From assembly GCA_040752415.1 (NCBI GenBank), contig JBFMGU010000003.1, forward strand, positions 1-64,000: DNA of 64,000 nt, written 5' to 3'. How positions within the stretch are numbered: the stretch's first letter is position 1; the number at the start of each line of letters is the position of its first letter. Positions 7,270 to 25,594 of the stretch are shown here, piece by piece. Both the position numbers and the translations under genes were made by a program. The notes beneath the pieces were generated by a model that was not told the origin of the DNA, made no database searches, and saw nothing but the letters and a program-made list of their open reading frames with translations. Origin of the DNA: Myxococcota bacterium. GTDB taxonomy: Bacteria > Myxococcota > JACRCW01.

Positions 7270-7901
7270 TGAAGACCACGCGTGACCTGCTCATCCCGGT
7301 GCTGATTGCCGCTGCCGCGTTCGCCGGTTGCGGATTGCGCCACCGCGTTGACCGCGACCTGCTGGAACCCATCCCCAACGAGGACAAGCTCCTCCTGTTC
7401 GAGGCGGAGAACGACGTCCTGATCGCCAAGGATGAGATTGCCGCCGCGGAGACCGACCTGGAAGACGCCAAGAAGGCGCTGGACAACGCGGAGGACCAGG
7501 CGGACACGCTGCGTGGGCAGGCGGGTCGCGAGAAGAACGCGCAGCTGGCGGCGCTGTTGCGTCAGTGGGCGGACAAGAAGATCGACTGGCGGGAGGCGGA
7601 GGTGGACCTGGCCAAGGCCCGCAAGGCCGCCGCGTCCGACGCGCTCACCGCCGCCCGCGCCCGCTACGAGAGGGCCAAGGCCCAGATCGTCAAGGAGCAC
7701 GCACCGCGCAGCGCCACCGGCATCTCGCTCAAGGACTTCGAGGGGCAGGTGAAGGACAAGGAGCAGGACGCCGAGAGCGGTCGCAAGGACGTGGAGAAGG
7801 CCAGGAAGCTGCGCGACGAGAAGCGCGCGGCCTATGATGCCGTCAGTCGCAAGCTGCAGCAGGTCAGCGACGGCGCGTACGGAGGGCCGTGGGCGGACTG
7901 A
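7269..7901 (+). CDS. coiled-coil lipoprotein
   Basis: MKTTRDLLIPVLIAAAAFAGC.. is a lipobox (AFAGC), followed by charged heptad-like sequence (EDAKKALDNAEDQADTLRGQ...). The listed ORF 6813..7901 is an in-frame upstream over-extension running antisense-like through the previous gene. The ATG at 7269 is coupled to the upstream stop. Confidence 0.5.
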   Translation: MKTTRDLLIPVLIAAAAFAGCGLRHRVDRDLLEPIPNEDKLLLFEAENDVLIAKDEIAAAETDLEDAKKALDNAEDQADTLRGQAGREKNAQLAALLRQWADKKIDWREAEVDLAKARKAAASDALTAARARYERAKAQIVKEHAPRSATGISLKDFEGQVKDKEQDAESGRKDVEKARKLRDEKRAAYDAVSRKLQQVSDGAYGGPWAD

Positions 7902-9944: not shown

Positions 9945-9962
9945 CCGTGTGGAGCTGGGGTC

Positions 9963-10511
9963 ATGGGGCGCCTGCTGTTGTGTGCAGCGCTGCTGGTGTC
10001 CGTGGGTGGTTGCTCGCTGCTGCCGTGGAATCGCGCGGCGGAGGAACGACGTCGTCAGGCCCGCAATGATGCGCTGGTCCGCAAGATGGACCACGTGGTG
10101 CGCTCCTACCTGGGCACGCGCTACCGCCTGGGCGGCAACAGTCACAAGGGCATTGATTGCTCCGGCCTGCTGGTGCGCATCTATGAGGCCGTGGGCATCC
10201 GGCTGCCGCGCACCGCCTCCGCGCAGTACGACGTGGGTCGCGGGGCGGACTCCGACGAGCTCCAGTACGGCGACATCCTCTTCTTCAACACCAAGCCGCT
10301 GGGAAGACGGACGTCGTGCCTGTTCCCCGGGCCCATGGCCCGCGCGGATGTGCCGCTCATCTATGGGTTGACCCACAGCGGGATGTACGTGGGGCGCGGC
10401 CGGTTCGTGCACGCTTCGTCCAGCAGCGGCGTGAGCTATGCCCACCTGGATGACGAGTACTGGCAGGACCGGTTCATCGGCGCTCGTCGGATCCTGGATG
10501 ATTTTGACTGA
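9963..10511 (+). CDS. NlpC/P60 (C40) peptidoglycan endopeptidase lipoprotein
   Basis: Lipobox LVSVGGCS. Catalytic Cys context GIDCSGLLVRIY and His context LTHSGMYVGRGRFVHAS are typical of NlpC/P60. Confidence 0.75.
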   Translation: MGRLLLCAALLVSVGGCSLLPWNRAAEERRRQARNDALVRKMDHVVRSYLGTRYRLGGNSHKGIDCSGLLVRIYEAVGIRLPRTASAQYDVGRGADSDELQYGDILFFNTKPLGRRTSCLFPGPMARADVPLIYGLTHSGMYVGRGRFVHASSSSGVSYAHLDDEYWQDRFIGARRILDDFD

Positions 10512-10619
10512 TCGGACTTGCGCGTGGGCTGGGCCCTTGCCAAATGGCCGCGGCTGATTTTTCTTGTTTCCCCACACCGGGCCTTGGTAGCCCGGGGGCC
10601 TTCCGAGTGGGACCACGGT

Positions 10620-10960
10620 TCATGATTCGTCTGGCGCGTTGGGTTCGACTGCTGTGCGTGGGGGCCATGTTGTGCGCCCCGGGCGCGGCGTTGGCCCGTG
10701 CGCAGACGGACCTGGCCGAGCAGTCATCGCCGGGACAGCGCCTGCTCGAGGAAGAAGTCCACCAGCACGTGGAGCGTCGGCCGGTGGCCCTGCGACACCG
10801 CGGGGTGGTGCCCACGCCCCGGGTTGGCGTCCACCACAAGCGCATCGTTGACCAGCAACCGGTGCATCCCCTGCTGGAACGGGGAGTGGCCGCGCGCCAG
10901 CGCTCCGTCCAGCTGCCGCGGCGCACCGCGCCCCCTCCAGACGTAGAGAAACGCGCCTGA
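10620..10960 (+). CDS. hypothetical small secreted protein (weak call)
   Basis: Internal start MIRLARWVRLLCVGAMLCAPGAALARAQ looks like a signal peptide. No recognisable domain. It overlaps a long antisense artefact ORF. Confidence 0.2.
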
Positions 10961-11144
10961 CGGCGTGAAGGCCGGCTGATTCCCTGACGAGCCCCGGGTT
11001 CGGGCTGCGCATTGTTGCGTGGTCCGCCCGGCCCGTCACCGGCCCACCCATCCACACGCAGAACTGCAACCTCTGTCGTCGTCGGTGATGCCGCCGCACG
11101 CGCTGCGTGTGCCCGGTGTCTCCGAAAGCGCGGGCTGAACCACC

Positions 11145-12755
11145 ATGTCCAACACCTCCTCCGACGTCACCGAGCTGGTCCCGGCGCCCGTCGCGCATGA
11201 CCCCCCTCTCGACGTCACCGAGCCGCCCCGCGTGGTTCCGGTGCTCCTCCTTGCCGTGGTGTCCACCGGACTGCTGGGCGCCTCCAGCCTGGCGCTGGCG
11301 CCGCTGAGCGCGCTGCTGGCCACCCCGTTCCTGGGCGGGCTCCTCGTGCTGCTGGCGCCGGTCTCGCACCGCGGGGTGCTGCGCGCGCTCACACTGGTCA
11401 CGTCGGTGGTGACGCTGGTGCGGGCCTGGTCGCTGCTGGGGCCCTTTGACGGGTCGGTGGCCAGCCTGCAGCTGGTGGAAAGGCACCCGTGGGCCCCGGA
11501 AATGGGGATGTCCTACGTGCTGGGTGTCGACGGGCTCTCGTTCCCGCTGGTGCTCCTGACCACGCTGGTCAGCACGGTGGCCACGGTGGCCTCCGCCAAC
11601 CTCGGCGACCGGCCGCGCGGATTCTGGGGCTGCCTGCTGCTGCTGGAGGCGGCCATGCTCGGCGTGTTCACCGCGCAGGACTGGTTCCTCTTCTACAGCT
11701 TCTGGGAGATCACGCTCATCCCGCTGTTCCTGCTCGTCGGAGTGTGGGGCGGGGCGGGTCGTCACCATGCGGCCATGAGCTTCTTCCTCTACACGCTGGC
11801 CGGCTCCATCTTCATGCTGCTCGCCATGCTCGCGGCGCACGACGCCACGCCGGGCCACACCTTTGACATGGCGGAGATGGCGCACGCCGCGCGCAGCTGG
11901 CCGCTCAACTTCCAGGAGATGGTGCTGCTGGGTTTCCTCCTCGGCTTCGCGGTGAAGATCCCGGTCTTCCCGCTGCACGGGTGGCTGCCGCTGGCGCACG
12001 TGGAAGCTCCGGTGCCGGTCAGCATGCTGCTCTCCGCGGTGCTCCTGAAGATGGGCTCCTACGGGCTGCTGCGCGTTGGCGTCATGGTCCCCGCGGCGCT
12101 GGACGCGTTCGCGCCGGTGCTGATGGGCCTGGCGCTGGTCAACATCATCTACGGCGCGCTCATGAGCTGGCGCCAGAACGATCTCAAGAGCGCGGTGGCG
12201 TACTCGTCGGTGAGCCACATGGGCTTCGTGGTGCTGGGCATCTCCGCCGCCAACCTCACCGGGCTCGTCGGCGCGACGATGCAGATGCTCACCCACGGCA
12301 TCATCACCGCCGGGCTCTTCATGATGGTGGGCGCGCTGTATCACCGCACGCACACGCGACAGCTCACCGAGTACGGCGGCCTGGGTCCGCGGGTGCCCGT
12401 GCTGGCCGCGTTCACGACGGTGGCGGTGCTGGGCTCCATGGGCCTGCCCGGCCTGGCCGGTTTCGTCAGTGAGCTGCACACGCTCGTCGGCGGGTTCGAG
12501 CGCTGGGGCATGGTGGCGGTGCTGGCGTGCGTGGGCGTGATCATCACCGGCGCCACGTGCATCCGCATCCTGGCCCGCGCCTTCATGGGTCCGGCCAACC
12601 CACGCCTCCCGCACCTGGGCGACGCGAACGTCTGGGAGTGGGTGGGCATGGCGCCGTTGGTGCTGCTCGTCGTGGGACTGGGGCTGCAGCCGGCGCTGGC
12701 CCTGGACCTCATGTCCGCCACGCTGGGCCGCATGGCCGCGGCGCTCAACCGATGA
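11145..12755 (+). CDS. complex-I antiporter-like subunit, NuoM/ND4 family (Proton_antipo_M)
   Basis: 536 aa polytopic membrane protein. ND4/NuoM hallmarks are present: LGVDGLSFPLVLLTTLV, FLFYSFWEITLIPLFLLVGVWGG, FFLYTLAGSIFMLLAML, AYSSVSHMGFVVLGI. Confidence 0.75.
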   Translation: MSNTSSDVTELVPAPVAHDPPLDVTEPPRVVPVLLLAVVSTGLLGASSLALAPLSALLATPFLGGLLVLLAPVSHRGVLRALTLVTSVVTLVRAWSLLGPFDGSVASLQLVERHPWAPEMGMSYVLGVDGLSFPLVLLTTLVSTVATVASANLGDRPRGFWGCLLLLEAAMLGVFTAQDWFLFYSFWEITLIPLFLLVGVWGGAGRHHAAMSFFLYTLAGSIFMLLAMLAAHDATPGHTFDMAEMAHAARSWPLNFQEMVLLGFLLGFAVKIPVFPLHGWLPLAHVEAPVPVSMLLSAVLLKMGSYGLLRVGVMVPAALDAFAPVLMGLALVNIIYGALMSWRQNDLKSAVAYSSVSHMGFVVLGISAANLTGLVGATMQMLTHGIITAGLFMMVGALYHRTHTRQLTEYGGLGPRVPVLAAFTTVAVLGSMGLPGLAGFVSELHTLVGGFERWGMVAVLACVGVIITGATCIRILARAFMGPANPRLPHLGDANVWEWVGMAPLVLLVVGLGLQPALALDLMSATLGRMAAALNR

Positions 12756-12765
12756 CGGAGTCACC

Positions 12766-15700
12766 ATGAGCACGCACAACCACGCGCACGAAACTCCCCG
12801 GGACCCCCGCGAGCGCCTCCGTCACGAGGTGGAGCACGCCAGTCATCTGCTCGCGGCGCAGGGGCCCATCCGCACCTTTGTGCACCACAATACGCTGCAT
12901 GGCCTGCAACACCTGCACTTCGACGACGCCATCCGGGAAGCGGAGCGCGTGCTGGGAGGGCAGGGTTATCTGCCGGTGGAGACGTTCCGGCGCCTGCACG
13001 TCGAGGGACGTATCCCGCGGGACCAGCTGCTGCGCGCGCTGGAGGAGCTGTCCGGCCTGCCCCTGACCGAGAAGCCAGCGGCCAACGTCACCGTGCGCGA
13101 CGTGGTGATGGCCCACCTGCTCCACGGCGTGGACCGGGCGTCTCCGTCGGAGTTGGCGTGGGAGATCGAGGGGCGGGGTGCGTTGGGCCGCTTGCGCGGG
13201 GACCTGCCGGCGGACGTGCGCGCGCAGTTGCTGCGGAAGGCCCACGACGAGCTGGAGCGTGGAGTTGCGCGCATTGGCGTGGAGTGGACCATCTCGGACT
13301 GGCTGGGCTCCATCACCGGTCTCGACGTGGCCGGGCATGTCACACGGGTTGCCGCGAGCGGAGGAGACGCCGGTGGCGCGGAACGCGCGTTGCGCGAGCT
13401 GGGGATTCCCGTCGAAAAGCGGGCGGGATACGTCGAGCTTGCGCAGCGTCGATGTCCTTCCGGACCGGACGCGTGGCTGCACCTGGAGGCGTTGACCGTG
13501 TCCGCGCTGGCGGAACGGCATTGGAGCGTGGAGGGAAATCTTCCGTCGCTGCAGCGCCACTTCCGAGAGCACGTGGAGGCCTATGCCGCCGAGACGCTTT
13601 GGCGCGCCTGCCTGGGCATCTGGGCCCTCGAGGACCCCACGTCTCCGACGGACGCCGCGTTGTCCCCGCGCGACCCGCACGGAGGCGTGGCCGAGCAGGC
13701 GTGGATCCATGCGGAGGAGATGGAGGCGGCCGGCGGTCCCGCGGTCACGTTGACGTCGTCACAGGTGGCCACCGTCCAGGCGCTGCTGACGCGAGCGGAC
13801 GAGGGTGACCACGCACGCCTGTGCTGGACCATCCAGCGCGAGTTGCGGGCAGCGGAGCTGGGGCGCGCAGGCTTGGAAGCGCTGCGCACGTTGCTCTCGC
13901 TCCACGCCGATGAAGTGGCTGCCAGGTTGCAGGAAGAGCTGCGCACGCAGGACCCGCACGCGCGCATGCTCGCCCACGCCCACGACGTCGCGACGAGCCT
14001 CATGGACGGACTGGCACACGGTTCCACCCACCGTGACGTTCTCCTGGCGGTCACCGGCGTCGACGTCAACGAGCGCGTGCATCCACGCATGTTGGAGCTG
14101 TGCTCCGCGTTCCTCGACGGAGGGATGGCCACCTGGCGCATGCCCGGTCGGACGCTCGGCCTCTACGACGCGTGGCGGAACCATGCTTCGCATGTGCTCG
14201 ATCTCGGAAATCCCGACGACCAGGAGCTGAAGTCGGCGCTCGCGGAGCTTCCCGTGCTGCCCGTGGACGCGGTGTTGCAGTCGCTGCGCGCGCTTGGTGT
14301 CGAGGAGGAGGCGTGGGGAGGGTACCTGGGACGCATCCTGCTGCAGCTGCCGGGATGGGGCGGGATGATCAGCTGGATGGAGCGCTCCGGACGACGGGAA
14401 CGCTCCGTGGACCTGGTGCAATTCCTCGCGGTGCGACTGTTCCTCGAACGGATGGAGATTGCGCGGCTGGCGCGTCGGACGTGGCACGTGGAGGGGACCA
14501 CCGAGGGCCTGCGCCAGTATTTCCTGACCCACCCCGAGGAGATCGTGGTCCGGCGGGAGCTGTTCTCCGGTTCCCTCCCCGAGCACCTGGCGGAAACCGC
14601 GCGACACCTCTGCCACGACGAGAATCCCCGACACCGCGCCGGTTGGACCTCGCTCGCGAATCTCCTGTGGCACCACCACGAGATCACCGGCGGCATCTCC
14701 GCGCATGACCACGCCTGGCGTCTCTTCCACCTCTCGCAGCTGCTGGGCCTGGGCGCCGAGGAGGTCCGTGCGCTGACCCGCGACGACGCCACGGCGCTGC
14801 TGAGGGTGCTGGACGGGTTTCCCGTCGAGAAGCACCGGCGCATCTGGCAGGCCGCGTATGAAAGCACCTACCGCGACCAGGTCCTGGACGCGCTCTGGCA
14901 GAACCGCGGGCGTGGACGTTGGAAGGACCGCCCGACGAGACCGCGCGCGCAGATTGCTTTCTGCATCGATGACCGGGAGGAGTCGTTCCGTCGTCACGTG
15001 GAGGAGATTGACCCGGAGTACGAGACGCTGGGCGTGGCCGGGTTCTTTGGCGTGGCCGTGCACTACCAGGGTCTCGACGACGAGGCGGCCAGCGCGCGCT
15101 GTCCCCTGGGTGTGAACCCGCAGCACCACGTGCGCGAGGTGGCGCAGGAGGATGCGGGGCGACAGATGGCGCGTCATCGCTCGGAGTCACGCTGGCAGCA
15201 GGCGGTTTCCGACGTGTTGTGGGAGCTGCGTCGCAGCCTGGTGGGCAGCTACTTCCTGGTGGACCTGGTGGGGGCGGTCTCGGCGGTGCCCTTGCTTGGG
15301 CGCGTGGCGTTCCCCGGCGCGTTTGACGACGTGGCGAACCGCGTCCGTAGCCCCATGAACACCGCCGTTCCCACCCGCCTCACCGTGGACGCGCGGGAGG
15401 TGGACGGACGCCGCAGCGGGTTCACCACCGCCGAGCAGGCCGACCGCGTGGAAGCCACGTTGCGCAACATGGGATTGACGTCGGGATTCGGGGCGGTGGT
15501 GCTGCTGTTTGGTCACGGATCCATCAGCGTCAACAATCCACACCTTTCCGCGTACGACTGCGGCGCGTGCGGCGGCAACCACGGTGGCCCCAACGCACGA
15601 CTCTTCGCCGCCATGGCCAATGCGCCGGAGGTGCGCGCGGTGCTGGCCACACGCGGCATCGTGATTCCCGACGACACCTGGTTCGTGGGCGCGGAGCACA

Positions 15701-16524
15701 ACACCTGCAATGAGCTGCTCACGTACTACGACACCGACGTCATTCCCGCGTCCAACAAGCAGGCCTTCGCGGAGCTGGTGAAGGACATGGAGGAGGCGCG
15801 TCGACGTTCCGCGCACGAGCGGGCTCGGCGTTTCCGGTCCGCGCCGCGCAATCCCACGCCGGAGCGCGCGTTGCGGCACGTGCAGGAGCGCGCGGTGGAC
15901 CTCAGCCAGGCGCGACCGGAGCTGGGACACGCCACCAACGCCTGCGCCGTCGTGGGGCGGCGGTCCCTGACGCGCGGGGTGTTCCTGGATCGCCGCGCGT
16001 TCCTCATCTCCTACGACGCCACGCAGGACCCCACGGGGAGCATCCTGGAGCGCATCCTGATGGCGGTGGGGCCGGTGGGGGCGGGCATCAACCTGGAATA
16101 CTACTTCTCCACCGTCGACAACCTGCGCTTCGGCTGCGGCTCCAAGGTGGTGCACAACGTCAACGGGCTGCTCGGCGTGATGGACGGTCCGCGCAGCGAC
16201 CTGCGTACCGGGCTCCCCAAGCAGATGGTCGAGATCCACGAGCCCATGCGGCTGCAGATGATCGTCGAGGCCAGCACGGAAACCCTCGGCGCCATCTACG
16301 GACGACAGAAGCCGTTGCAGGAGCTCATTGGCAACGCGTGGGTGCACCTGGTGGCCGTGGACCCGCACAGCGGGGAGGCCTCGGTGTTCACGCCTGGCCG
16401 GGGATTCGTGCCCTGGACGCCGCCGGGGAGCGCGCTCCCAACGGTCAAGGCCTCGTCGGACTGGTACCGCGAAAAAGCGGATTTCATTCCTCCCGCGCTG
16501 ATCCAGGGGGACCGCCATGCTTGA
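12766..16524 (+). CDS. DUF2309/DabA-like protein (putative beta-CA-like CO2-hydrating subunit of a DAB-type complex), unusually long (1252 aa)
   Basis: N-terminal AAQGPIRTFVHHNTLHGLQH matches the conserved DabA/UPF0753 N-terminus. Internal FCIDDREESFRRH (CxDxR) and GHGSISVNNPHLSAYDCGACGGNHGGPNAR (His/Cys) resemble the Zn-ligand motifs reported for DabA. It starts 11 nt after the upstream ND4-like gene, and its 3' end overlaps the next gene by 8 nt. Confidence 0.8.
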   Translation: MSTHNHAHETPRDPRERLRHEVEHASHLLAAQGPIRTFVHHNTLHGLQHLHFDDAIREAERVLGGQGYLPVETFRRLHVEGRIPRDQLLRALEELSGLPLTEKPAANVTVRDVVMAHLLHGVDRASPSELAWEIEGRGALGRLRGDLPADVRAQLLRKAHDELERGVARIGVEWTISDWLGSITGLDVAGHVTRVAASGGDAGGAERALRELGIPVEKRAGYVELAQRRCPSGPDAWLHLEALTVSALAERHWSVEGNLPSLQRHFREHVEAYAAETLWRACLGIWALEDPTSPTDAALSPRDPHGGVAEQAWIHAEEMEAAGGPAVTLTSSQVATVQALLTRADEGDHARLCWTIQRELRAAELGRAGLEALRTLLSLHADEVAARLQEELRTQDPHARMLAHAHDVATSLMDGLAHGSTHRDVLLAVTGVDVNERVHPRMLELCSAFLDGGMATWRMPGRTLGLYDAWRNHASHVLDLGNPDDQELKSALAELPVLPVDAVLQSLRALGVEEEAWGGYLGRILLQLPGWGGMISWMERSGRRERSVDLVQFLAVRLFLERMEIARLARRTWHVEGTTEGLRQYFLTHPEEIVVRRELFSGSLPEHLAETARHLCHDENPRHRAGWTSLANLLWHHHEITGGISAHDHAWRLFHLSQLLGLGAEEVRALTRDDATALLRVLDGFPVEKHRRIWQAAYESTYRDQVLDALWQNRGRGRWKDRPTRPRAQIAFCIDDREESFRRHVEEIDPEYETLGVAGFFGVAVHYQGLDDEAASARCPLGVNPQHHVREVAQEDAGRQMARHRSESRWQQAVSDVLWELRRSLVGSYFLVDLVGAVSAVPLLGRVAFPGAFDDVANRVRSPMNTAVPTRLTVDAREVDGRRSGFTTAEQADRVEATLRNMGLTSGFGAVVLLFGHGSISVNNPHLSAYDCGACGGNHGGPNARLFAAMANAPEVRAVLATRGIVIPDDTWFVGAEHNTCNELLTYYDTDVIPASNKQAFAELVKDMEEARRRSAHERARRFRSAPRNPTPERALRHVQERAVDLSQARPELGHATNACAVVGRRSLTRGVFLDRRAFLISYDATQDPTGSILERILMAVGPVGAGINLEYYFSTVDNLRFGCGSKVVHNVNGLLGVMDGPRSDLRTGLPKQMVEIHEPMRLQMIVEASTETLGAIYGRQKPLQELIGNAWVHLVAVDPHSGEASVFTPGRGFVPWTPPGSALPTVKASSDWYREKADFIPPALIQGDRHA

Positions 16525-18553
16525 TGTCGTCATCCTGCTTGTTCCCGCGCTCCCGCTGCTGGCGGCCGCGTTGCTCGGCGTGTTGTGGGCGTCCGGTCGC
16601 ACGTTGGCGGAACGGACCGTCAGCCGGATGGTGTGTGGCGCCATCGGCCTCTCGCTCGTCGGGTCGGCGTTTGCGTTGACCCAGGTGCTCACGCTCCATC
16701 ACGGCGTGGAGGTGCGCGCGTGGCGCTGGCTGGAGAGTGGTCGCTTCACCGTGGACGTGGCGTTCCTCGTCGACCCGCTCTCGGGCGTCATGATGACGCT
16801 GGTTTCCCTGCTGTGCCTGGTGGCGTCGTGGTTTGCACGCAACTACATGCACGCGGAGGCGGGGTTCACGCGCTTCTTCGCCCTGGTGAGCCTGTTTGCC
16901 GGCGCCATGCTGGTGCTGGTGATGGCCAACAACTACGTCGTCATGTTCGCCGGGTGGGAGCTGGCGGGCATCTGCTCGTACCTGCTCATTGGCTACCAGC
17001 ATGAGCGCACCTCCGCGGTGCAGGGCGCCACGAGGGCATTCATCACCAAGCGCGTGGCGGAAGTGGCCCTGGTGTTGGGCATCCTGCTCGTGTTCGTGCA
17101 GTTCGGGACGGTGGACTACACGCGGGTGTTCGGTGCGGTGGGTGGATTGTCGACGGAGATGGCCAACGTCATGGCGCTCTGTCTGTTCCTGGGCGCCGCG
17201 GGGAAGGCCGCGCAGCTTCCGTTCGCCACGTGGTTGCCACGCGCCATGGAGGGGCCCACGCCGTCGAGCGCGCTCTTCTACGGCGGCACCATGGTCTCCG
17301 CGGGGGTGTACCTGGTGATCCGCAGCCAGCCCATCTTCAACGCCGCGCCCAACGTGCTGGTGATGGTGGCCATGGTGGGCGTGCTCACCGCCGTGTACGG
17401 CGCGCTCGTCGGGTGGGTGCAGACGGACGTGAAGAGCATCCTGGCGCATTCCGTCATGACGCAGCTGGGGCTCATGTTCCTGGCGTGCGGGCTGGGGGCG
17501 TACACCGCGGCGGTGCATCACCTGGTGGCCCACGCCGTCTTCAGCACGCTGCTCTTCCTGACCGCGCCCTCCATCCTCCTGCGCCTGCGCGACGCGAGCC
17601 CGCGTGAACACGGCGACCGCCACCAGATGACGACGCCACAGTGGCTCTTCATCCTCGGCGTGGCGGGCCTGATGGCCATGCCGTTCGTATCCGGCTGGTG
17701 GGAGACCGACGAGCGCGGCGCGGCATTCGAGGACGCCGGTCACGTGCTGCTGGCTTTTGGCGCGAAGGCGGCGTTCGGCACGGTGGTGCTCTCGTCGCGC
17801 GCGGTGCAACGCGCCTTCGGTGGTCCGCTGGGATCCTCGGTGCTGCGCGTCATGGTGATCAGTCTGGTCGCCGTGGGGCTCGCGGTGGCCGTGCAGCAGA
17901 CGGTGCTCGCCGGTGGGATCGACCAGGGCTGGTTCCAGCGTTTCATGGGCGGGCCGGATGTGAAGCACGGCGACGTGGCCCCGCTGCTGCTCCACGCCTT
18001 GATGCTGGTGCTGCTCGTGGCGCTTACCGTGGGCTGGCTCGGTGCGCTGTACTTTGACCGGCAGCAGCCCGAGGTCCACGGCGCGCTGATGGTCCGGTTG
18101 CGCACGTTGCACGCGGTCGCGTTGCGACGGTTCCATCTCGAGGATCTGCAGGAACGCTGGTTGGTGGCGCCGTTGCTGCGGCTGGGGCGCTGGCTGGACC
18201 GCGTGGATCGTCGGGTCATTGACCGCGCCATGGGGACGCCGGGGCCCGCGCAGCAGGTGCGCAGCGTGCTGGCGCAGTGGGAGGAGCACGTGGCCACCGG
18301 CGGTGCGGTGTCGTCGGAGGGACGGGGCCTGGGACCGGCGCGGGGGCTCATGGGGACGCTGGCGGAGGTTGCTGCGGCGTTCTCGTCGGCGTTGGAGCGC
18401 TACGTCATTGGAATGCTGGTGGGGCGGGGCGTGCCGCAGACCAGTGGCCTGCTGGGGCGGGCGCTCAACGGGCTGGAGCACGTGGTGGGCAAACCCGTGG
18501 TGCTGGGGGCCGTCGTGGCGGCTGGAGCCCTGATGCTGTTGGGGGTGCGTTGA
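16517..18553 (+). CDS. complex-I antiporter-like subunit, NuoL/ND5/MnhA family (DabB-like)
   Basis: 678 aa. ND5/NuoL-type motifs: FAGWELAGICSYLLIGY, AGKAAQLPFATWLPRAMEGPTPSSALFYGGTMVSAGVYLVIRS, SILAHSVMTQLGLMF. Long C-terminal extension typical of L-type subunits. Overlaps DabA-like stop. Confidence 0.8.
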   Translation: MLDVVILLVPALPLLAAALLGVLWASGRTLAERTVSRMVCGAIGLSLVGSAFALTQVLTLHHGVEVRAWRWLESGRFTVDVAFLVDPLSGVMMTLVSLLCLVASWFARNYMHAEAGFTRFFALVSLFAGAMLVLVMANNYVVMFAGWELAGICSYLLIGYQHERTSAVQGATRAFITKRVAEVALVLGILLVFVQFGTVDYTRVFGAVGGLSTEMANVMALCLFLGAAGKAAQLPFATWLPRAMEGPTPSSALFYGGTMVSAGVYLVIRSQPIFNAAPNVLVMVAMVGVLTAVYGALVGWVQTDVKSILAHSVMTQLGLMFLACGLGAYTAAVHHLVAHAVFSTLLFLTAPSILLRLRDASPREHGDRHQMTTPQWLFILGVAGLMAMPFVSGWWETDERGAAFEDAGHVLLAFGAKAAFGTVVLSSRAVQRAFGGPLGSSVLRVMVISLVAVGLAVAVQQTVLAGGIDQGWFQRFMGGPDVKHGDVAPLLLHALMLVLLVALTVGWLGALYFDRQQPEVHGALMVRLRTLHAVALRRFHLEDLQERWLVAPLLRLGRWLDRVDRRVIDRAMGTPGPAQQVRSVLAQWEEHVATGGAVSSEGRGLGPARGLMGTLAEVAAAFSSALERYVIGMLVGRGVPQTSGLLGRALNGLEHVVGKPVVLGAVVAAGALMLLGVR

Positions 18554-20082
18554 TGGAAACGTTTCCGCTGTTGAGCGCGTTGCTGTTCCTTCCGTTGGTG
18601 GCGTCGGTGACCATGACCGCGCTGCGCGACGAACGGGTGGCGCGCCTGGCCGCGTGGGCCTTCGCTGGCGTCGAGCTGTTGCTGGCCGGTGTGATGATCC
18701 TGCGCTTCCAGTCTGGTGTTCCAGGGCCGCAGCTCGTCGAGAACGGGTTCCTCATCCCGGGTCTGGGAGTGCAGTACCACCTCGGTGTCGACGGAATCAG
18801 CGCGTTGTTCGTCCCGGTGGCGGCGCTGATGACCCTGCTCATGGTCCTCCACACCGACGAGCAGGCAGGCGGCGCGCGGCAGAACCTGGCGTCCATCTTC
18901 GCCATGGAGGCCAGCACGGTGGGCGTGCTCGTCTCGTTGGACCTGGGGCTGTGGTGGCTGTTCCTCACGCTGGAGGTGTGGCCCGCGTACCTGGTGATCC
19001 GACGCTGGGGCACCGGGGAACGTCGTCACGAGGTGGCGCGCAGGTTCGCGGCGTTCATGGCGGTCAGCGTGGTGACCTCGTTGGCGGCCGTGGTCTGGCT
19101 CCGCGTGCAGGGCGCGGGACGGCCGTTTCCCCTCAGCGTGACGTCGTGGATGCAGGATCCGCTGGCCGCCGCGGCGCAGGAGCCGGTCTTCCTCCTGTTG
19201 CTGTTGGCGTTGGCCATCCGCATCCCCGTCTTCCCGTTCCACACGTGGCTTCCCCAGGTGGTCGAGCACGGTCCGCTCGTCGGGGTGACGGTGTTCTTCC
19301 TGGGGCTCAAGGTGGGCGCGTACTCACTGCTCCGCGTGGTCATCCCGGTGCTCCCCGACGCCGCGCAGCACTGGGCGTGGTTGATGGCCGGCCTGGGCGT
19401 GGCGGGGCTGTTGCACGGCGGGCTGATTGCCATGGTGGAGCCGAATCTCCGTCGCATGCTGGCGTTCGCGAGCGTGAGTCACGTCGGCGGAGTGCTGCTG
19501 GGAATTGCTTCCCTCACCATGGCGGGGTTCCAGGGCGCGTTGCTGCAGATGCTGAGCCTGGGCGTCTGCGTGGTGTGCCTGTTCTTCCTCGCGGGTTTCC
19601 TCCAGCGGCGGACCGGCGCCGTCGACGCGCCGTCCCTCGGCGGACTGGTGCACCGCGTGCCGCGGCTCTCGGTGGTCTTCCTCGTCATGGCCATGGCGTG
19701 CGTGGGCATGCCGGGCACCAGCGGTTTCAACGGGGAGCACCTCATCATGCTGGGCGCGCTGCGCGCGAACTGGCTCTGGGGCCTGGCCGCGGGTGTGGGA
19801 ACGTTGCTGAGCGCCGCGTACTTCCTCATCTACTTCCAGCGCGCCTTCATCCGCGCGCCCGTCGTCAACACGGCTTCTCCCATCTCCGACCTGACCGCGC
19901 GGGAGTGGCTCACCTGTGGAACGTTGTGCGCGCTGGTGTTCTGGTGCGGTCTCTTCACCGGTCCGTTCCTCGACGTGATGAACGGTTCACTCAAGTCGCT
20001 GGCCCACAAGGTCGACCGTCGCGCGCACACCACCGTGACCACGCTGGAGCAGCAGCCGGGGAGCAACCATGCCCTTGAATGA
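18553..20082 (+). CDS. complex-I antiporter-like subunit, NuoM/ND4 family
   Basis: Start METFPLLSALLFLPLVASV shares the A of the upstream TGA (TGATG). Motifs LGVDGISALFVPVAALMTLLMVL, WWLFLTLEVWPAYLV, FPFHTWLPQVVEHGP. Confidence 0.75.
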   Translation: METFPLLSALLFLPLVASVTMTALRDERVARLAAWAFAGVELLLAGVMILRFQSGVPGPQLVENGFLIPGLGVQYHLGVDGISALFVPVAALMTLLMVLHTDEQAGGARQNLASIFAMEASTVGVLVSLDLGLWWLFLTLEVWPAYLVIRRWGTGERRHEVARRFAAFMAVSVVTSLAAVVWLRVQGAGRPFPLSVTSWMQDPLAAAAQEPVFLLLLLALAIRIPVFPFHTWLPQVVEHGPLVGVTVFFLGLKVGAYSLLRVVIPVLPDAAQHWAWLMAGLGVAGLLHGGLIAMVEPNLRRMLAFASVSHVGGVLLGIASLTMAGFQGALLQMLSLGVCVVCLFFLAGFLQRRTGAVDAPSLGGLVHRVPRLSVVFLVMAMACVGMPGTSGFNGEHLIMLGALRANWLWGLAAGVGTLLSAAYFLIYFQRAFIRAPVVNTASPISDLTAREWLTCGTLCALVFWCGLFTGPFLDVMNGSLKSLAHKVDRRAHTTVTTLEQQPGSNHALE

Positions 20083-21586
20083 GATCATGGCGTTGCAGCA
20101 GGTGGGCTTCCCCATCCTGACCACGCTCATCCTGCTCCCGGTGGCGGCGATCTTCGCATTGCTGGTGGCGCCGGTGAGCTGGTCGCGGAGGGTGGGTTAC
20201 GTGGCCGCGGCGCTGGAGCTGGCGTTGTCCGTGCTCCTGGTGGCGCGCTTCCGGCCCGGCGTGGCGGACATGCAATTCGTGGAGCGCGCCAGCTGGATTC
20301 CCACGCTGGGAGTGAACTGGCACGTCGGTGTCGACGGCATCAGCCTGCTGTTCATCCCGCTGACCTGTTTGCTGACGCTGCTGGTGCTCATCCAGCGCGC
20401 GCCCTCCGCCAAGGTCCACCCGCGCGGGTGGCTGGCGTGCATGTTGGGGTTGCAGGCGGCCACCGTCGGGGTGTTCGCAGCGCTGGACCTGATCCTGTTC
20501 TTCATCTTCTGGGAGCTGACGCTCATCCCCACGTTCTTCCTCGTGTCCCGTTGGGGCTTCGGTCCGCATCGACGGTTCGCCGCCGTGAAATACGTGGTGT
20601 TCATGCTTGTGGGCTCGGCGCCGTTGCTGGTAGCCAACATCATCCTGGGCACCCACGCGGCGCGCATTACCGGCAACTTCGTCGGAGCGTTCGACCTCAC
20701 CGCGCTCCTCGCCACGCCGCTTCCCGTCGAGCTGCAGACCCAGGTGCTCTTCCTGCTGGTGCTGGGGTTCGCCGTGAAGGCGCCCATGTTCCCGTTCCAC
20801 ACCTGGCTGCCCGCGCTGCTGCTGGAGGGGCCCGTCGGGATCGGGGTGTTCATGGTGGGTGTGAAGCTCGGCATCTACGGGCTCGTCCGCCTCGCCATTC
20901 CGCTCGCTCCCGACGCGGCTCGCGAATGGGCCACGGCGGGCATGGCCTGGGGGCTGGTGGGCGTCCTCTATGGCGCGCTCGTGGCGCTGAGCCAGGACAA
21001 CCTCCGTCGGATGCTGGCGTTTCTCGGCGTCAGTCACGTGGGGTTGATGGTCATGGGCCTGTTCTCGCTCAATGTGCAGGGCGTGCAGGGCGCGCTGCTG
21101 GTGATGCTCAACATGGGGATCACCTCCACGGGACTGATGTTCCTCCTCGGCGCGCTCTACGCGCGCACCGGCTCGTCGGACCTGACGGCGCTGGGCGGAT
21201 TGGCGCGACATGCTCCCATGCTCACCACCGCCTTCTTCGTCCTGGCGCTGGGCTCCATGGGTGTCCCGGGAACCAGCGGGTTCAGCAGCGAGCAGGTGCT
21301 GCTGTTGGGCGCATTCAAGGCCCACGGGGGCTGGGCGGCGGCCGCGCTCGTCGGTGCGCTGGTGGGTGCCGCGGCGCTCATCTGGGCCTTCCAACGCGCC
21401 TTCGTCGGTCCCGCCAGCCCACGCCGCGTCGACGATCTGCTCCCCCGCGAGAAGGCCGTGGCCGCCGTTCTCGTCGTGCTCGTGCTTGCCCTGGGGCTCC
21501 ACCCGCGACCGGTGATGGAGACCAGTCGCGCCGCCGTGGATGCCTTCCACCAACGTCTCAACCTTCGCGTCACCGCGTCACGCTGA
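20069..21586 (+). CDS. complex-I antiporter-like subunit, NuoN/NuoM (ND2/ND4) family
   Basis: 505 aa. Motifs VGVDGISLLFIPLTCLLTLLVL, ILFFIFWELTLIPTFFLVSRWG, MFPFHTWLPALLLEGPVGIGVF. Overlaps upstream gene by 14 nt. Confidence 0.75.
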   Translation: MPLNEIMALQQVGFPILTTLILLPVAAIFALLVAPVSWSRRVGYVAAALELALSVLLVARFRPGVADMQFVERASWIPTLGVNWHVGVDGISLLFIPLTCLLTLLVLIQRAPSAKVHPRGWLACMLGLQAATVGVFAALDLILFFIFWELTLIPTFFLVSRWGFGPHRRFAAVKYVVFMLVGSAPLLVANIILGTHAARITGNFVGAFDLTALLATPLPVELQTQVLFLLVLGFAVKAPMFPFHTWLPALLLEGPVGIGVFMVGVKLGIYGLVRLAIPLAPDAAREWATAGMAWGLVGVLYGALVALSQDNLRRMLAFLGVSHVGLMVMGLFSLNVQGVQGALLVMLNMGITSTGLMFLLGALYARTGSSDLTALGGLARHAPMLTTAFFVLALGSMGVPGTSGFSSEQVLLLGAFKAHGGWAAAALVGALVGAAALIWAFQRAFVGPASPRRVDDLLPREKAVAAVLVVLVLALGLHPRPVMETSRAAVDAFHQRLNLRVTASR

Positions 21587-21602
21587 ACCGTCAGAGGTCC
21601 CC

Positions 21603-23234
21603 ATGCAGACCGATTCCGTCGTCAAGGAAAAGCCCGTCGCCAAGAACGTTGCACCGCCGCCCGCGCAGCCCGCGTCGGCGACGCCCAAACCGGACGCGCC
21701 GGACCTGCGTCCCACCGCGAACATCAAGTACGACCTGCCCGCGGGCCTGGTGGTCTTCCTGGTGGCGCTGCCGCTTTGCCTGGGCATTGCGCTGGCCTCC
21801 AACGCGCCGCTGTTCTCCGGCGTCATCGCGGGGATTGTGGGTGGCCTGGTGGTCCCGTTCATCAGCGGCTCACCGCTCAGCGTCAGCGGTCCCGCGGCGG
21901 GACTGGCGGCGATTGTCTCCATGGGCATTGCGCAGGTGGGCGGCTTCCCGCAGTTCCTGGCGGCGGTGCTCCTGGGCGGCGTCATCCAGATCCTGCTCGG
22001 CGCGTTCCGGCTGGGCGCGGTGGCGTATTTCATCCCCTCGTCGGTGATCAAGGGCATGCTCACCGCCATTGGCCTGCTCCTCATCTTCAAGCAGCTCCCG
22101 CACGCCATCGGTTATGACGTCGACAACTTTGCCTCCGTGAAGTTCAAGGCCGCCGACGGCAACACCTTCAGCGTGCTGCTGGACTCGGTGAAGACCATGG
22201 AGTGGGGCGCGTTCCTCATCAGCGCGGTCTCGCTCGTCATCCTGGCGGGTTGGGAGCACACGCCGCTCAAGAAGATCTCGTTCCTCCCGTCGGCACTGGT
22301 GGCGGTCGTTGTTGGCTCGCTCATCAATGAGGGACTGGTGTCGTCGGGCTCCGCGCTGGCGTTGGGGAGCACGCACCTGGTGGACCTTCCGCCCATGGAC
22401 GGCGTGGGTGGCTTCGTGGCGCAGCTGCAGATGCCGCAGTGGAGCGCGTTCACCAACCCGCAGGTGTGGGTCATGGGGCTCACGCTTGGCATCGTGGCGT
22501 CGTTGGAGACGCTGCTCAGCATTGAGGCGGTGGACAAGCTGGACCCGTTCCACCGCAAGAGCCCGCTCAACCGTGAGCTGCTGGCGCAGGGCGCGGCCAA
22601 CGCCACCTCCGGTCTCATCGGCGGGTTGCCCATCACCGCCGTCATCGTGCGCAGCAGCGCCAACGTGAATGCCGGTGCGCGCACGCAGGCCTCCGCCATC
22701 TTCCACGGTGTGTTCCTGTTCCTCGCGGTGGTATTCGCCGGGAGCCTGTTGGTGCACATCCCGCTGGCGTGCCTGGCCTCCATCCTGCTCATGACCGGCT
22801 ACAAGCTGGCCAAGCCCGCCATGTTCCGCGCCATGTTCCAGCTGGGTTGGGGTCAGTTCATCCCGTTCATGGCCACCATCGTCGCCATTGTGTTCACCGA
22901 CCTGCTGCGCGGCATTGGCGTGGGCTTGGTGGTGGGCCTGGCGTTCGTGATCCGCGCCAACATCCGCGACGCGTTCACCGTCAAGAAGCACGGCTCCAGC
23001 TATCTCATCCTGCTGCGCAAGGACGTGTTCTTCTACAACAAGGCCGTGCTCATCCAGGCGCTGGAGCGCATCCCGTCGGGCGCCAGCGTGATTGTCGACG
23101 GAGGCAGCACCGAGTTCATTGACATGGACATCTACGAGGCGGTGCTGGCCTTCAAGGCAGGCGCCGCGGCGCGCAACATCAACGTGGAGCTGCGGCTGCG
23201 CGCGCCCGGCGTCATGGCGCCCGCGGCGCATTGA
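21603..23234 (+). CDS. SulP-family anion transporter with C-terminal STAS domain (BicA/sulfate-permease-like)
   Basis: Start MQTDSVVKEK is preceded by GAGG 7 nt upstream. The listed ORF 21540.. overlaps the previous gene and is less likely. SulP hallmarks: LVVFLVALPLCLGIALASNAPLFSGVIAGIVGGLV.. Multiple TM segments. C-terminal STAS-like fold (YLILLRKDVFFYNKAVLIQALERIPSGASVIVDGGSTEFIDMDIYEAVLAF). Confidence 0.8.
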   Translation: MQTDSVVKEKPVAKNVAPPPAQPASATPKPDAPDLRPTANIKYDLPAGLVVFLVALPLCLGIALASNAPLFSGVIAGIVGGLVVPFISGSPLSVSGPAAGLAAIVSMGIAQVGGFPQFLAAVLLGGVIQILLGAFRLGAVAYFIPSSVIKGMLTAIGLLLIFKQLPHAIGYDVDNFASVKFKAADGNTFSVLLDSVKTMEWGAFLISAVSLVILAGWEHTPLKKISFLPSALVAVVVGSLINEGLVSSGSALALGSTHLVDLPPMDGVGGFVAQLQMPQWSAFTNPQVWVMGLTLGIVASLETLLSIEAVDKLDPFHRKSPLNRELLAQGAANATSGLIGGLPITAVIVRSSANVNAGARTQASAIFHGVFLFLAVVFAGSLLVHIPLACLASILLMTGYKLAKPAMFRAMFQLGWGQFIPFMATIVAIVFTDLLRGIGVGLVVGLAFVIRANIRDAFTVKKHGSSYLILLRKDVFFYNKAVLIQALERIPSGASVIVDGGSTEFIDMDIYEAVLAFKAGAAARNINVELRLRAPGVMAPAAH

Positions 23235-23237
23235 GTC

Positions 23238-23620
23238 CCCCCAAGAAGGAAGTCAGGAGTCAGAAGTCAGAAGATGGTCCCGCGACGACGACGGGTAGGC
23301 ATCTTCTGAAGGGGCGTTGGAGAAGTTCCGACAAGGGCGTCACAACGGAGAGTGTGGTCCTGCCCTGCTTGTTGCGGCGGGCGAGCCCGCACCTGGCAAT
23401 GTGGCGGCGCCAAGCGCGTCACGAAGCGGGTGGGCGGAAGCAGCGGCGCCCTGGAGTGCGGTGCGAACCGAGCGAGCGGTCGACGACGTGAAGCACCGCC
23501 CTGGATCGGGCCGCTCCGACGGCGCATCCGACAGACCCTCAGAAGGTGCTCTCCCGTCGTCGTCACGGGACCAACCTTCTGACTTCTGACTCCTGACTCC
23601 TGACTTCCTTTTGGGATCCC
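23238..23620. repeat. long imperfect palindrome: ~75-bp inverted-repeat arms (GGAAGTCAGGAGTCAGAAGTCAGAAG...GGTCCCGCGACGACGACGGG...) separated by ~235 bp
   Basis: Left arm 23238-23312 and right arm 23545-23620 are reverse complements with only a few mismatches. The outer parts carry a tandem GTCAGAA/GTCAGGA motif. A nested second inverted pair (GTCCCGCGACGACGACGGG / CCCGTCGTCGTCACGGGAC) sits inside. Intergenic between SulP and a hypothetical gene. Confidence 0.7.
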
Positions 23621-23674
23621 CGACAACCCATGACCCACATTGCGACCGCAGATCGCGACCTCTAACGTCAGGGC

Positions 23675-24226
23675 GTGCCGCGCCCGTCCATTCCCCGCGC
23701 CGTGCCTCCCGCCACGCCCGCGGGTGTCATCTCCGCGCGGCCCGGATTGCGTGGTCACGACGGGCGTTGGCCGCGTCGCATCCTGGGCCTGATGCTGTTG
23801 CTGGCGTGCATCCCCGCCACCTGCATGGCGGTGGTGGACCGCCTGTTTCCCACCGAGGGGAGCTTCGCCAACCTGGCGGCCATGCGGGAGCGCGGCTGGC
23901 ACGTGCCCACGTTCGTCCCGCCTGTGGCGACGGAGATCCGCGTGTGGAGCCATCCGCCGGCGCGCACGTGGGCCATGCGGTTCCGTTTCCCGACGGGGAA
24001 TCCCTGGATCTCGTCGCACGGCGTGGAGGTGCCCACCGCGGAGGTGCCCTACCGTCTGCCCACGGAGCAGGTTCCCCCGTGGTGGCCCCCGGAGCTCGAC
24101 GGCGCACGCGCGGTGGGAGCGCAGCCGGGTGTGACGTACGTGCGGTTCCACCGGTCGCGGAATTCCTCGTTCTTCTGCGCGGTCACGGCGGAATCCGTGG
24201 CGCACTGCTGGCACCGGCGACACTGA
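23675..24226 (+). CDS. hypothetical membrane protein
   Basis: 183 aa. One clear TM helix (ILGLMLLLACIPATCMAVV). No recognisable domain. Codon usage is consistent with neighbours. Confidence 0.3.
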   Translation: MPRPSIPRAVPPATPAGVISARPGLRGHDGRWPRRILGLMLLLACIPATCMAVVDRLFPTEGSFANLAAMRERGWHVPTFVPPVATEIRVWSHPPARTWAMRFRFPTGNPWISSHGVEVPTAEVPYRLPTEQVPPWWPPELDGARAVGAQPGVTYVRFHRSRNSSFFCAVTAESVAHCWHRRH

Positions 24227-24287
24227 GTTGCACGGCTGGTTTCCCCGGGGCGGTCCTGCTAGGAGGGGGCCCGGAACCGAGCAGCCC

Positions 24288-24653
24288 ATGCCCAATCCCG
24301 CCGACATTGCCAAAGTGCGTGCGTTCATTTCCCGCGAGCTGGACACCATCAGTGAGTACGTCGCCATGGCGGAGGCCGCCGAGGACCCCGTGGTGAAGGA
24401 GCTCTTCATCCACGTGGCGCGCGAGGAGAAGGAGCACGTGGCGGAGGGCATGCGCCTGTTGCACGCGCTGGATCCGGATCAGGCCAGCGTGGAGTCGGCG
24501 CACGCGGAGGCGCTGCTGGGCGGGGCGGCGGGCTCGTCGTTGGGGCCGTTGGCCACGCCCGTGTCGTCGGCCGCGTCCACGCCCGCTTCCGCGCCGCCGG
24601 ATGGCCCCGGGAAAGGCACCTTCACCGTAGGCAACCTCCGACGGGGCGCCTGA
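24288..24653 (+). CDS. encapsulin cargo: ferritin-like (EncFtn/rubrerythrin-like) protein with C-terminal targeting peptide
   Basis: Start MPNPADIAK is preceded by AGGAGGGGG. ExxH ferritin-like helices (VAREEKEHVAEGMRLLHALD). Disordered Ala/Ser/Pro linker, then C-terminal ...GKGTFTVGNLRRGA, resembling the TVGSLR-type encapsulin cargo-loading peptide. Immediately upstream of an encapsulin shell gene. Confidence 0.7.
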   Translation: MPNPADIAKVRAFISRELDTISEYVAMAEAAEDPVVKELFIHVAREEKEHVAEGMRLLHALDPDQASVESAHAEALLGGAAGSSLGPLATPVSSAASTPASAPPDGPGKGTFTVGNLRRGA

Positions 24654-24709
24654 CCTCCCACGTTGTTATCTTCCTCCCACCCGCATTCCGGTTTGCACGG
24701 AGACACTCC

Positions 24710-25594
24710 ATGCCCACCCCTCCCAGCTATCACAGCTACACCGGTCACGCCGAGAACCCGCTGACGCCCGACGAGTGGAACAAGATGCGCGCCGCGGTCA
24801 TCGAGAGCGCCACGCGTCACATGGTGGGACGTCGGATCATTGACGTCTACGGTCCGCTGGGGCCGGGCGTGCAGAGCCTCCCGTTCGAGCAGTTCGCCGA
24901 CGCTTCGCTGGGCACCGTGGACCTGATTGGTGAGAAGAGCGAGGGCGCGGTGGTGGCGGAGAGCCGTCGCTTCAAGCCCATCCCGATGATCCACAAGGAC
25001 TTCGTGCTGCACTGGCGTGACCTGGAGGCCAGCCGTGGCGGGGCCTTCCCCCTCGACGTCTCGGCGGCGGCGGGCGCGGCCTCGCTGGTGGCGCGGGCCG
25101 AGGACCGGCTCATCTTCTTTGGCAACGCGGAGCTGGGTTACGACGGGCTCATGAACGCGCAGGGCCGCTCCCACGTGGAGATGCGGTCCTGGGAGCGCAC
25201 CGGCGGCGGGTTCGAGAACGTGGTGGAGGCGCTGGAGGTCCTGCTGGCGCACGGTCACTACGGCCCCTACGCCATGGCCGCCAGCCCCAAGCGCTTTGCG
25301 CAGCTGCACCGCGTCTACGAGAAGACCGGCGTCCTCGAGATCGACTCGATCAAGAAGGTGGTCACCGAGGGCATCTTCCAGTCCACCGTGCTCACCGGGG
25401 ACCAGGCGGTGGTGATTGCCGTCGGGAGCGAGCACTTTGACCTGGCGGTGAGCGTGGACGTGGACCTGGCGTACCTGGGCGCGGAGAAGATGAACCATCC
25501 CTTCCGCGTGCTGGAGTGCGTGGCGCTGCGCATCAAGCACCCCGACGCCATCTGCACCTTCGAGGCGGGTCCGCAGCGTCGTGGCAAGGGCTGA
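24710..25594 (+). CDS. family-1 encapsulin shell protein (HK97 fold, linocin M18-like; EncA-like)
   Basis: 294 aa. About half the residues match M. xanthus EncA as I remember it (GHAENPL..EW, VGRRIxDxYGPLG, KDFxLHWRD, PLDVSAAAGAA, GHxGPYA, YEKTGVLEI, MNHPFRVLE..LRIKHPDAICT). Confidence 0.85.
   Translation: MPTPPSYHSYTGHAENPLTPDEWNKMRAAVIESATRHMVGRRIIDVYGPLGPGVQSLPFEQFADASLGTVDLIGEKSEGAVVAESRRFKPIPMIHKDFVLHWRDLEASRGGAFPLDVSAAAGAASLVARAEDRLIFFGNAELGYDGLMNAQGRSHVEMRSWERTGGGFENVVEALEVLLAHGHYGPYAMAASPKRFAQLHRVYEKTGVLEIDSIKKVVTEGIFQSTVLTGDQAVVIAVGSEHFDLAVSVDVDLAYLGAEKMNHPFRVLECVALRIKHPDAICTFEAGPQRRGKG

Follow-up and report, generated by a model that had tools for sequence, protein, structure and literature searches.

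A SulP-family transporter gene in the DabA cluster of a Myxococcota bacterium: a candidate bicarbonate transporter

What does a SulP-family transporter do when its gene directly follows the genes of a putative CO2-hydrating complex? The question is raised by a 64,000-nt stretch of the genome of a Myxococcota bacterium (assembly GCA_040752415.1, contig JBFMGU010000003.1, positions 1 to 64,000; hereafter, the window), in which a gene for a 543-aa SulP/SLC26-family transporter (21603..23234, + strand, from translation and PF00916; labelled 'win-type', of a short-tail clade linked to carbonic anhydrase, CA) closes a six-gene block encoded on a single strand in the order NuoM-like, DabA, NuoL-like, NuoM-like, NuoM-like, SulP. 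DAB complexes are proton-gradient-driven one-way CAs which convert CO2 to cytoplasmic HCO3- (PMC13144422; bioRxiv 10.64898/2026.05.01.722082). In a sequence-only reading, this arrangement had been taken as suggestive of an integrated locus for the uptake of inorganic carbon, with the remarks that the SulP family includes the bicarbonate transporter BicA and that sequence does not reveal the substrate of a SulP. Our analysis supports the view that the link between the SulP gene and the DabA cluster is not accidental, and suggests that the SulP protein probably transports bicarbonate in a functional partnership with the DabA complex; that it serves specifically in uptake is less sure.

The closest relatives of the window SulP (52-63% identity, 438-570 aa, with alignments covering 81-99% of the query) come from Polyangium, Sorangium, Chondromyces, Minicystis and Byssovorax, and also from Bacteroidota. 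In a neighbour-joining tree of 48 sequences (488 retained columns, 200 bootstraps), the protein formed a clade with 100% bootstrap support with CA-adjacent proteins of Sorangium, Chondromyces, Minicystis and Ohtaekwangia. We inspected the gene neighbourhoods of six close relatives. Orthologues with 52-57% identity in Sorangium cellulosum, Chondromyces crocatus and Minicystis rosea are immediately preceded by a co-oriented beta-CA gene (PF00484), and in Ohtaekwangia (Bacteroidota) the beta-CA gene lies immediately 3' of SulP; the remaining two neighbourhoods, from Polyangium aurulentum and from a metagenome-assembled genome (MAG) of Myxococcota, have none. A scan of metagenomic contigs with the clade alignment recovered 80 loci (47-55% identity), 66 of which carry a beta-CA gene; in 56 loci, this gene is co-oriented and within 400 nt of SulP (50 downstream and 6 upstream), and half of the 14 loci lacking it (7) have <1 kb of downstream flank. 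The window gene is a new member of this CA-linked SulP clade. A tblastn search found no beta-CA gene anywhere in the 64-kb window, where the DabA cluster takes its place, and no second SulP gene was found there.

The association of SulP with DabA recurs at other loci. Of the 80 metagenomic loci recovered for the window SulP clade, six have DabA as well. At locus L112, the order NuoM-DabA-NuoL-NuoM-NuoM-betaCA-SulP is that of the window with a CA gene added. The L112 SulP (519 aa) and the window SulP share 51% identity, and the L112 CA (213 aa) carries the CxDxR and HxxC motifs and has no signal peptide. Besides L112, five loci combine a SulP of the window clade, CA and DabA/DabB. Furthermore, the window DabA belongs to a rare long form (see below), and all other assessable long-form DabA loci carry a SulP gene at the 5' end of the cluster. 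These loci come from Actinomycetota (L011, L012, L013), Acidobacteria (L014), Rubrobacter (L016), Polyangium sp. y55x31 (L017, with the 5' SulP divergently oriented) and Roseovarius autotrophicus (L066); locus L015, with a contig ending 4 nt upstream of the first gene, was left out of the count. Among the 5' SulPs, pairwise identity is 55-72% in the comparisons made (L011-L013), whereas identity to the window SulP is only 34-38%; they form the sister clade of the window clade (95.5% bootstrap; 90% for the pair of clades). SulPs of the sister clade are also encoded directly before short DabA genes in Sorangium (L058, L062, L069) and Myxococcus eversor (L088), and after the cluster in MAGs of Nitrosomonadales and Planctomycetaceae (L025, L089). 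The low identity and the sister position indicate that DabA clusters have acquired SulP genes from no fewer than two lineages, and at different ends. The CA-linked lineage is the one present in the window, whereas the loci of the nearest relatives of its DabA have the sister lineage.

In a DabA-centred sample of 80 loci from species-representative genomes, a SulP-family gene was present within 10 kb in 27 loci, and within 1.5 kb in 15 of the 39 loci having at least 2.5 kb past both cluster ends. Apart from the two clades described above, the DabA-linked SulPs include a tail-less 450-aa Nitrosomonas clade and several STAS-bearing proteins. SulP is most simply explained as a HCO3- transporter, because it stays while its partner swaps between beta-CA and DabA, and the metabolite shared by these partners is HCO3-. 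The notion of an integrated inorganic-carbon locus is thus strengthened by L112 and by the recurrent beta-CA and DabA linkage of SulP clades; bicarbonate as the substrate and uptake as the direction are what we infer from this linkage.

The surveyed loci held several further arrangements of these genes. The DabA clusters of Nitrosomonas (L020, positions 6496-7860 and 20670-22025; L021; L027; L040) are flanked by one or two divergent SulPs of ~450 aa that have no C-terminal domain, share 22-28% identity with the window SulP and, with 81% bootstrap support, fall together with both short-tail clades. At L095 (2025-14514), DabA, DabB and a sister-clade SulP are followed by two tandem SulP-betaCA pairs, and at L153 (10001-18192), two SulP-CA pairs lie face to face beside DabAB. 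In Methylobacter, a SulP fused to two universal-stress-protein (Usp) domains is encoded 2.5 kb away from a DabA cluster and oriented opposite to it (L046, 3777-6092, - strand). Possible regulators were also observed: small CBS-domain proteins flank two of the clusters that combine SulP with long DabA (L011, 362-757; L012, 14712-15110), and two-component regulators are encoded upstream of the cluster at L013; the window cluster has no equivalent of either.

SulP genes juxtaposed or fused to beta-CA genes have earlier been proposed to encode bicarbonate transporters (PMC6458275), an idea traced to Felce and Saier 2004, as quoted in the same paper. That work describes a SulP clade ('clade C') which has no recognisable STAS domain, is encoded next to or fused with beta-CA and includes both can2-sulP of Acidithiobacillus ferrooxidans, transcripts of which drop with rising CO2, and Rv3273 of Mycobacterium tuberculosis (PMC6458275). 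By shared properties, the window clade appears to match clade C: it adjoins beta-CA in the 56 of 80 loci mentioned above, has no Pfam-detectable STAS domain, is ~520-545 aa long and is predicted to move bicarbonate, with the limit on this match that our tree includes neither Rv3273 nor AFE_0286, nor the sulfate transporter Rv1739c. The two differ in the partner, which in the window is a five-gene DabA/NuoL/NuoM complex, that is, an energy-coupled one-way CA rather than a reversible soluble CA.

To which of the characterized SulP groups, then, does the protein belong? Kinship with BicA by descent, as implied by the sequence-only reading, is not supported. The window SulP scores 124.4 bits against the BicA equivalog NF050096 (NCBIfam cut-off, 880), shares 25.7% identity with BicA and groups with it in only 3 of 200 neighbour-joining bootstraps (1.5%), in an alignment in which BicA was represented by its transmembrane domain. 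The Na+ ligands of BicA are Asp258, Thr262 and Thr302 (bioRxiv 10.1101/2022.06.08.495363); the corresponding residues of the window SulP are Glu302, Ser306 and Ile348, so that two of the three ligands are kept, in conservative versions only, and the complete set is absent. This E/S/I pattern resembles those of SLC26Dg of Deinococcus (E/T/I) and Escherichia coli DauA (E/C/I). Equivalog score, tree and Na+-ligand residues together rule out orthology with BicA. What remains in common with the cyanobacterial Na+-dependent transporter (PDB 6KI1) is the family, the fold, the presumed substrate and the logic of pairing a HCO3- transporter with a CO2-hydrating complex; unlike the window protein with its minimal STAS-like tail, BicA has a full STAS domain.

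Orthology with DauA and membership in the canonical sulfate permeases are likewise ruled out by curated cut-offs and the tree. The protein scores 158.4 bits against the DauA equivalog NF008660 (NCBIfam cut-off, 614) and 164 bits against the canonical sulfate permease model TIGR00815 (cut-off, 380.45), and canonical STAS-bearing SulPs that pass TIGR00815 (e.g., L032, 6255-8372, 442 bits) are located in a separate region of the tree. Thus, clustering with sulfate-type SulPs, the outcome which the sequence-only reading had named as speaking against it, was not observed. Among solved bacterial SulPs, DauA (YchM) and SLC26Dg are the best matches in sequence and structure (the top PDB sequence match being SLC26Dg, E=3.8e-28), and both share with the window SulP the Glu of the transmembrane helix 8 motif; the helix 10 Arg (Arg350 of VRSSANV), which is common to DauA and canonical SulPs, is Gly in BicA and Gln in SLC26Dg. 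Both nonetheless differ from it in gene context and in overall sequence, at 25.5% (DauA) and 27.1% (SLC26Dg) identity. The alignment included E. coli DauA, and the BicA and SLC26Dg sequences were reconstructed from PDB alignments.

The label 'SulP/STAS' given to the protein from its sequence is firmer in its first half than in its second. Membership in the SulP family is secured by a PF00916 (Sulfate_transp) match of 183.2 bits in the Pfam scan (cut-off, 23.2) over residues 42-420, which delimits the transmembrane transport domain (21726..22862, + strand), with the LETLLS (E302, S306) and VRSSANV (R350) motifs placed by alignment to BicA, SLC26Dg and DauA; a match to the molybdate transporter family MFS_MOT1 is weak (23.5 bits, below the Pfam cut-off of 30). 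For the STAS part, the whole-protein Pfam scan gave no match to PF01740 or PF13466, and the C-terminal 91 aa alone gave only a weak match to STAS_2 (13.1 bits versus a cut-off of 29.2, E=0.11), so that a full STAS domain was rejected at the Pfam level. An AlphaFold2 model that draws on 20 members of the clade (mean predicted local distance difference test score, pLDDT, 80.3; predicted TM-score, pTM, 0.72) does contain a compact module of ~75 residues at positions 458-531 (22974..23195, + strand; pLDDT about 78-89), with the secondary structure beta-beta-alpha-beta-alpha-beta, and phmmer aligned this module with the beginning of the SLC26Dg STAS domain. According to the model, the protein thus carries a minimal, degenerate STAS-like tail.

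The 14-helix transport/scaffold architecture is characteristic of the SLC26 family. Foldseek comparison of the model yielded matches to SLC26A11 (TM-score TMq 0.73), AtSULTR4;1 (0.72) and the BicA transmembrane domain (TMt 0.85, normalised to that domain), and alignments with the full-length SLC26 structures (SLC26Dg, SLC26A11, AtSULTR4;1) span 504-545 columns; the modelled protein has the SLC26 transmembrane fold. Residues 1-31 are predicted to be disordered, and alignment with relatives starts at about residue 39-40.

The gene itself is well delimited. The open reading frame (ORF) runs from an ATG at 21603 to a TGA at 23232-23234. The TGA stop of the preceding NuoM-like gene occupies 21584-21586, leaving a gap of 16 nt (21587-21602), within which a GAGG ribosome-binding site, read from the sequence (21594..21597, + strand), lies 5 nt before the ATG; distance and ribosome-binding site are both as first described. 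There is no in-frame alternative ATG, GTG or TTG between 21603 and the first transmembrane helix, and starting from the in-frame ATG at 21540 would produce a 47-nt overlap with the upstream gene. Third-codon-position GC content (GC3) of the ORF is 0.90, with 68.6% GC in the window. An identical 543-aa protein has already been deposited as a 'SulP family inorganic anion transporter' from a 94-kb contig of the MAG Myxococcota bacterium (P0001).

The five genes upstream of SulP are all on the + strand, in agreement with the co-orientation described before. They encode a NuoM/NdhD-like antiporter-type subunit (11145..12755, 536 aa as called; PF00361, 237 bits; TIGR01972, 499 bits), a long-form DabA (12766..16524, 1252 aa; PF10070, 844 bits), a full-length NuoL-like, DabB-like subunit (16517..18553, 678 aa; PF00361 and PF00662; TIGR01974, 415 bits over residues 6-578) and two further NuoM-like subunits (18556..20082, 508 aa, TIGR01972, 367 bits; 20069..21586, 505 aa, TIGR01972, 431 bits), the last directly upstream of SulP. 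The frame 18654-20078, with an Arg/Gly-rich nonsense translation, was dropped in favour of 18556-20082. The successive intergenic distances are 10, -8, 2, -14 and 16 nt, so that the six genes form an operon-like block that is probably co-transcribed. The context is that of DAB/DAC systems, with a PF10070 protein that has its Zn ligands and a PF00361 partner, the NuoL-like gene overlapping the end of DabA. DabA looks active, because its four beta-CA-type Zn ligands (C733, D735, H917 and C932) fall in invariant columns of a 20-sequence alignment. It has ~240 extra residues (about residues 160-400) compared with the common DabAs of ~1000 aa; this long form is rare, represented by five other sequence clusters (1224-1311 aa) from Actinomycetota, Acidobacteria, Polyangium and metagenomes, versus many of about 930-1130 aa.

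Scans of 9900-24800 for sigma-70 promoters and intrinsic terminators gave nothing above the shuffled expectation, with no terminator-like site between the cluster genes, and no Rfam element was detected in the same region. A hairpin with a 10-bp stem, 33 nt past the SulP stop (23267..23309, + strand, from RNA folding), may mark the end of the transcription unit; the fold of 23232-23330 is weak (-33.5 kcal/mol, z = -1.7), has no T-run and was missed by the terminator scan. The five-gene order NuoM-DabA-NuoL-NuoM-NuoM (~9.3-9.5 kb) was also observed among loci L019-L093 (e.g., L020, L027, L031, L083), with hosts including Nitrosomonas, Methylococcaceae, Sulfurimicrobium, Accumulibacter and Magnetococcales, among others.

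Within the limited coverage of the literature searched, we found no description of a linkage between SulP and DabA or of the five-subunit NuoM-DabA-NuoL-NuoM-NuoM cluster. Like the DAB/DAC/MpsAB systems, the window encodes a DabA that keeps its Zn ligands, together with a DabB of the NuoL-like kind. However, the published complexes consist of two or three subunits (the DabAB2 dimer and the DabABC1 trimer) and include no SulP, whereas the window combines a long-form DabA, a full-length NuoL-like and three full-length NuoM-like subunits with a co-oriented SulP. In principle, the arrangement is also similar to the cyanobacterial set of NDH-1(3/4) with CupA/B and BicA or SbtA, in which a complex-I-type module drives one-way CO2 hydration and a separate transporter moves HCO3-. 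It differs from that set in that DabA is unrelated to the Cup proteins, there is no redox module, the genes form one putative operon and the host is apparently heterotrophic. Co-location of inorganic-carbon 'toolkit' genes in general is already known (PMC10880623).

If SulP is indeed a bicarbonate transporter tied to DabA, the five other products would form a membrane-energised, vectorial CO2-hydrating CA complex with four antiporter-like subunits, converting CO2 that diffuses into the cell to cytoplasmic HCO3-, and SulP would move HCO3- across the inner membrane, most likely by cation-coupled uptake. At the positions of the BicA Na+ site, its residues are closer to the pattern of SLC26Dg and DauA than to that of BicA; the coupling ion, like the direction, should be read as a prediction. 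One transcript would then cover both species of inorganic carbon and feed bicarbonate-dependent carboxylations in an apparently heterotrophic myxobacterium. In non-autotrophs, DAB/MpsAB systems are known to provide carboxylation reactions with bicarbonate, and the bicarbonate is likely used in the same way here.

Several points weigh against this interpretation. The substrates of SulP proteins are diverse and include sulfate, dicarboxylates and halides as well as bicarbonate; the window protein is related to BicA at the family level only; and bicarbonate transport by its clade is a prediction. In Rv3273, the best-known CA-fused SulP, the papers that we found characterise the CA domain only. 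CA-free E. coli is rescued by some proteobacterial SulPs, which also accumulate inorganic carbon, but not by one SulP paralogue of T. pelophila (PMC12628692). Co-transcription with DabA is deduced entirely from gene spacing. Neither a Rubisco nor a carboxysome gene is present in the 64-kb window, which thus offers no direct link to a CO2-concentrating mechanism. Finally, most relatives are paired with a cytoplasmic CA of the reversible kind, which would drain an accumulated pool of HCO3- instead of maintaining it, and linkage to a HCO3--making enzyme fits export or exchange as well as uptake.

The last two points lead to an alternative that we consider unlikely while still giving it real weight, namely that SulP is a bicarbonate exporter, an exchanger of HCO3- for sulfate, chloride or oxalate, or a relief valve for pH or inorganic carbon. 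Several mammalian SLC26 proteins exchange HCO3- for other anions. Arg350, shared with DauA and canonical SulPs and replaced by Gly in BicA, fits such a role, and a function in pH homeostasis has been raised for A. ferrooxidans (PMC6458275). Uptake is nevertheless favoured because there would be little point in co-transcribing an exporter with a complex that spends energy on accumulating HCO3-, unless the exporter served for exchange, and because the SulPs tested in an inorganic-carbon context import (BicA; T. pelophila SulP-CS; PMC12628692); furthermore, there are no sulfur-assimilation or other anion-metabolism genes nearby.

It is very improbable that SulP is an ordinary permease for sulfate or another inorganic anion that lies beside DabA without functional connection. 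The generic Pfam/NCBI name 'sulfate permease family' and the sub-threshold MFS_MOT1 match would suit such a protein, but the TIGR00815 score and the distinct tree position of canonical STAS-bearing SulPs would not. Moreover, SulP genes of two clades are repeatedly found next to CA or DabA genes, in different phyla and in either gene order, and by our rough estimate, chance would place a SulP gene within 10 kb of a given gene in a few percent of cases at most, because SulP genes are few per genome, compared with the 27 of 80 loci observed. We attach similarly scant credence to a carrier of organic carboxylates that, like DauA, takes C4-dicarboxylates or, like SLC26Dg, fumarate and that is linked to CA/DabA because bicarbonate-dependent carboxylation forms or uses up the acid. 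The top PDB match to SLC26Dg, the near-equal scores of the DauA and generic sulP models (158 versus 164 bits) and the E/S/I pattern point in this direction; however, the score is far from the DauA cut-off, identity to DauA and SLC26Dg is no closer than that to BicA, and there are no dicarboxylate-metabolism genes nearby in the window or at the surveyed loci.

A bolder extension of the preferred bicarbonate transporter, which strikes us as rather doubtful, is that the short-tail SulPs (the window clade, the sister clade and the tail-less Nitrosomonas clade) are dedicated partners of CO2-hydrating enzymes and not transporters acting on their own, the window SulP physically joining DabA/NuoL/NuoM3. 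SulP might dock, for example, through its minimal STAS-like module, to give a six-subunit machine for CO2 and HCO3- or a channel for HCO3- between the vectorial CA and the periplasm. Should this be true, such SulPs would dock onto beta-CA elsewhere and onto DabA here, the one partner being exchangeable for the other.

The remainder of the window contains other genes on the far side of SulP. About 1 kb downstream, on the same strand, starts a pair consisting of a small EncFtn/rubrerythrin-like cargo gene (24228-24653) and an encapsulin shell gene (Linocin_M18, 24710-25594). Between SulP and this pair lies an ORF of 183 aa (23675-24226, + strand) that passes the GC3 test and has no known domain; a 394-aa ORF (23267-24451, - strand) has no Pfam match, fails the GC3 test and is probably not a gene. 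The region 25631-52487 is densely occupied by genes of purine and pyrimidine biosynthesis, including purA, an AIR-synthase-like gene on the minus strand, pyrF (458 aa), pyrD and purC, several others being fused: amidohydrolase-aspartate carbamoyltransferase (39471-41756), PurS-PurL (44341-47208) and PurN-PurH (50379-52487). Bicarbonate is a substrate in both pathways.

CA-adjacent and CA-fused SulPs have been called bicarbonate transporters since 2004 on the basis of prediction. The window, L112 and the long-form DabA loci show that the partner is swappable: SulP stays whether it is paired with a soluble CA that works reversibly, with a one-way CA coupled to energy, or with both. Such partner swapping is the strongest kind of genomic argument for HCO3- as the substrate. 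Three SulP clades emerge as candidate bicarbonate transporters. DAB systems may often be accompanied by such a transporter: a SulP-family gene is present at the locus of many DAB-type systems, those of nitrifiers and methanotrophs among them, which bears on the modelling of inorganic-carbon supply in heterotrophs and chemolithotrophs and on the engineering of CO2-concentrating modules. Current ideas are not overturned by these observations; rather, the known pairing of CA with SulP is extended to cases in which a DabA complex replaces the soluble CA.

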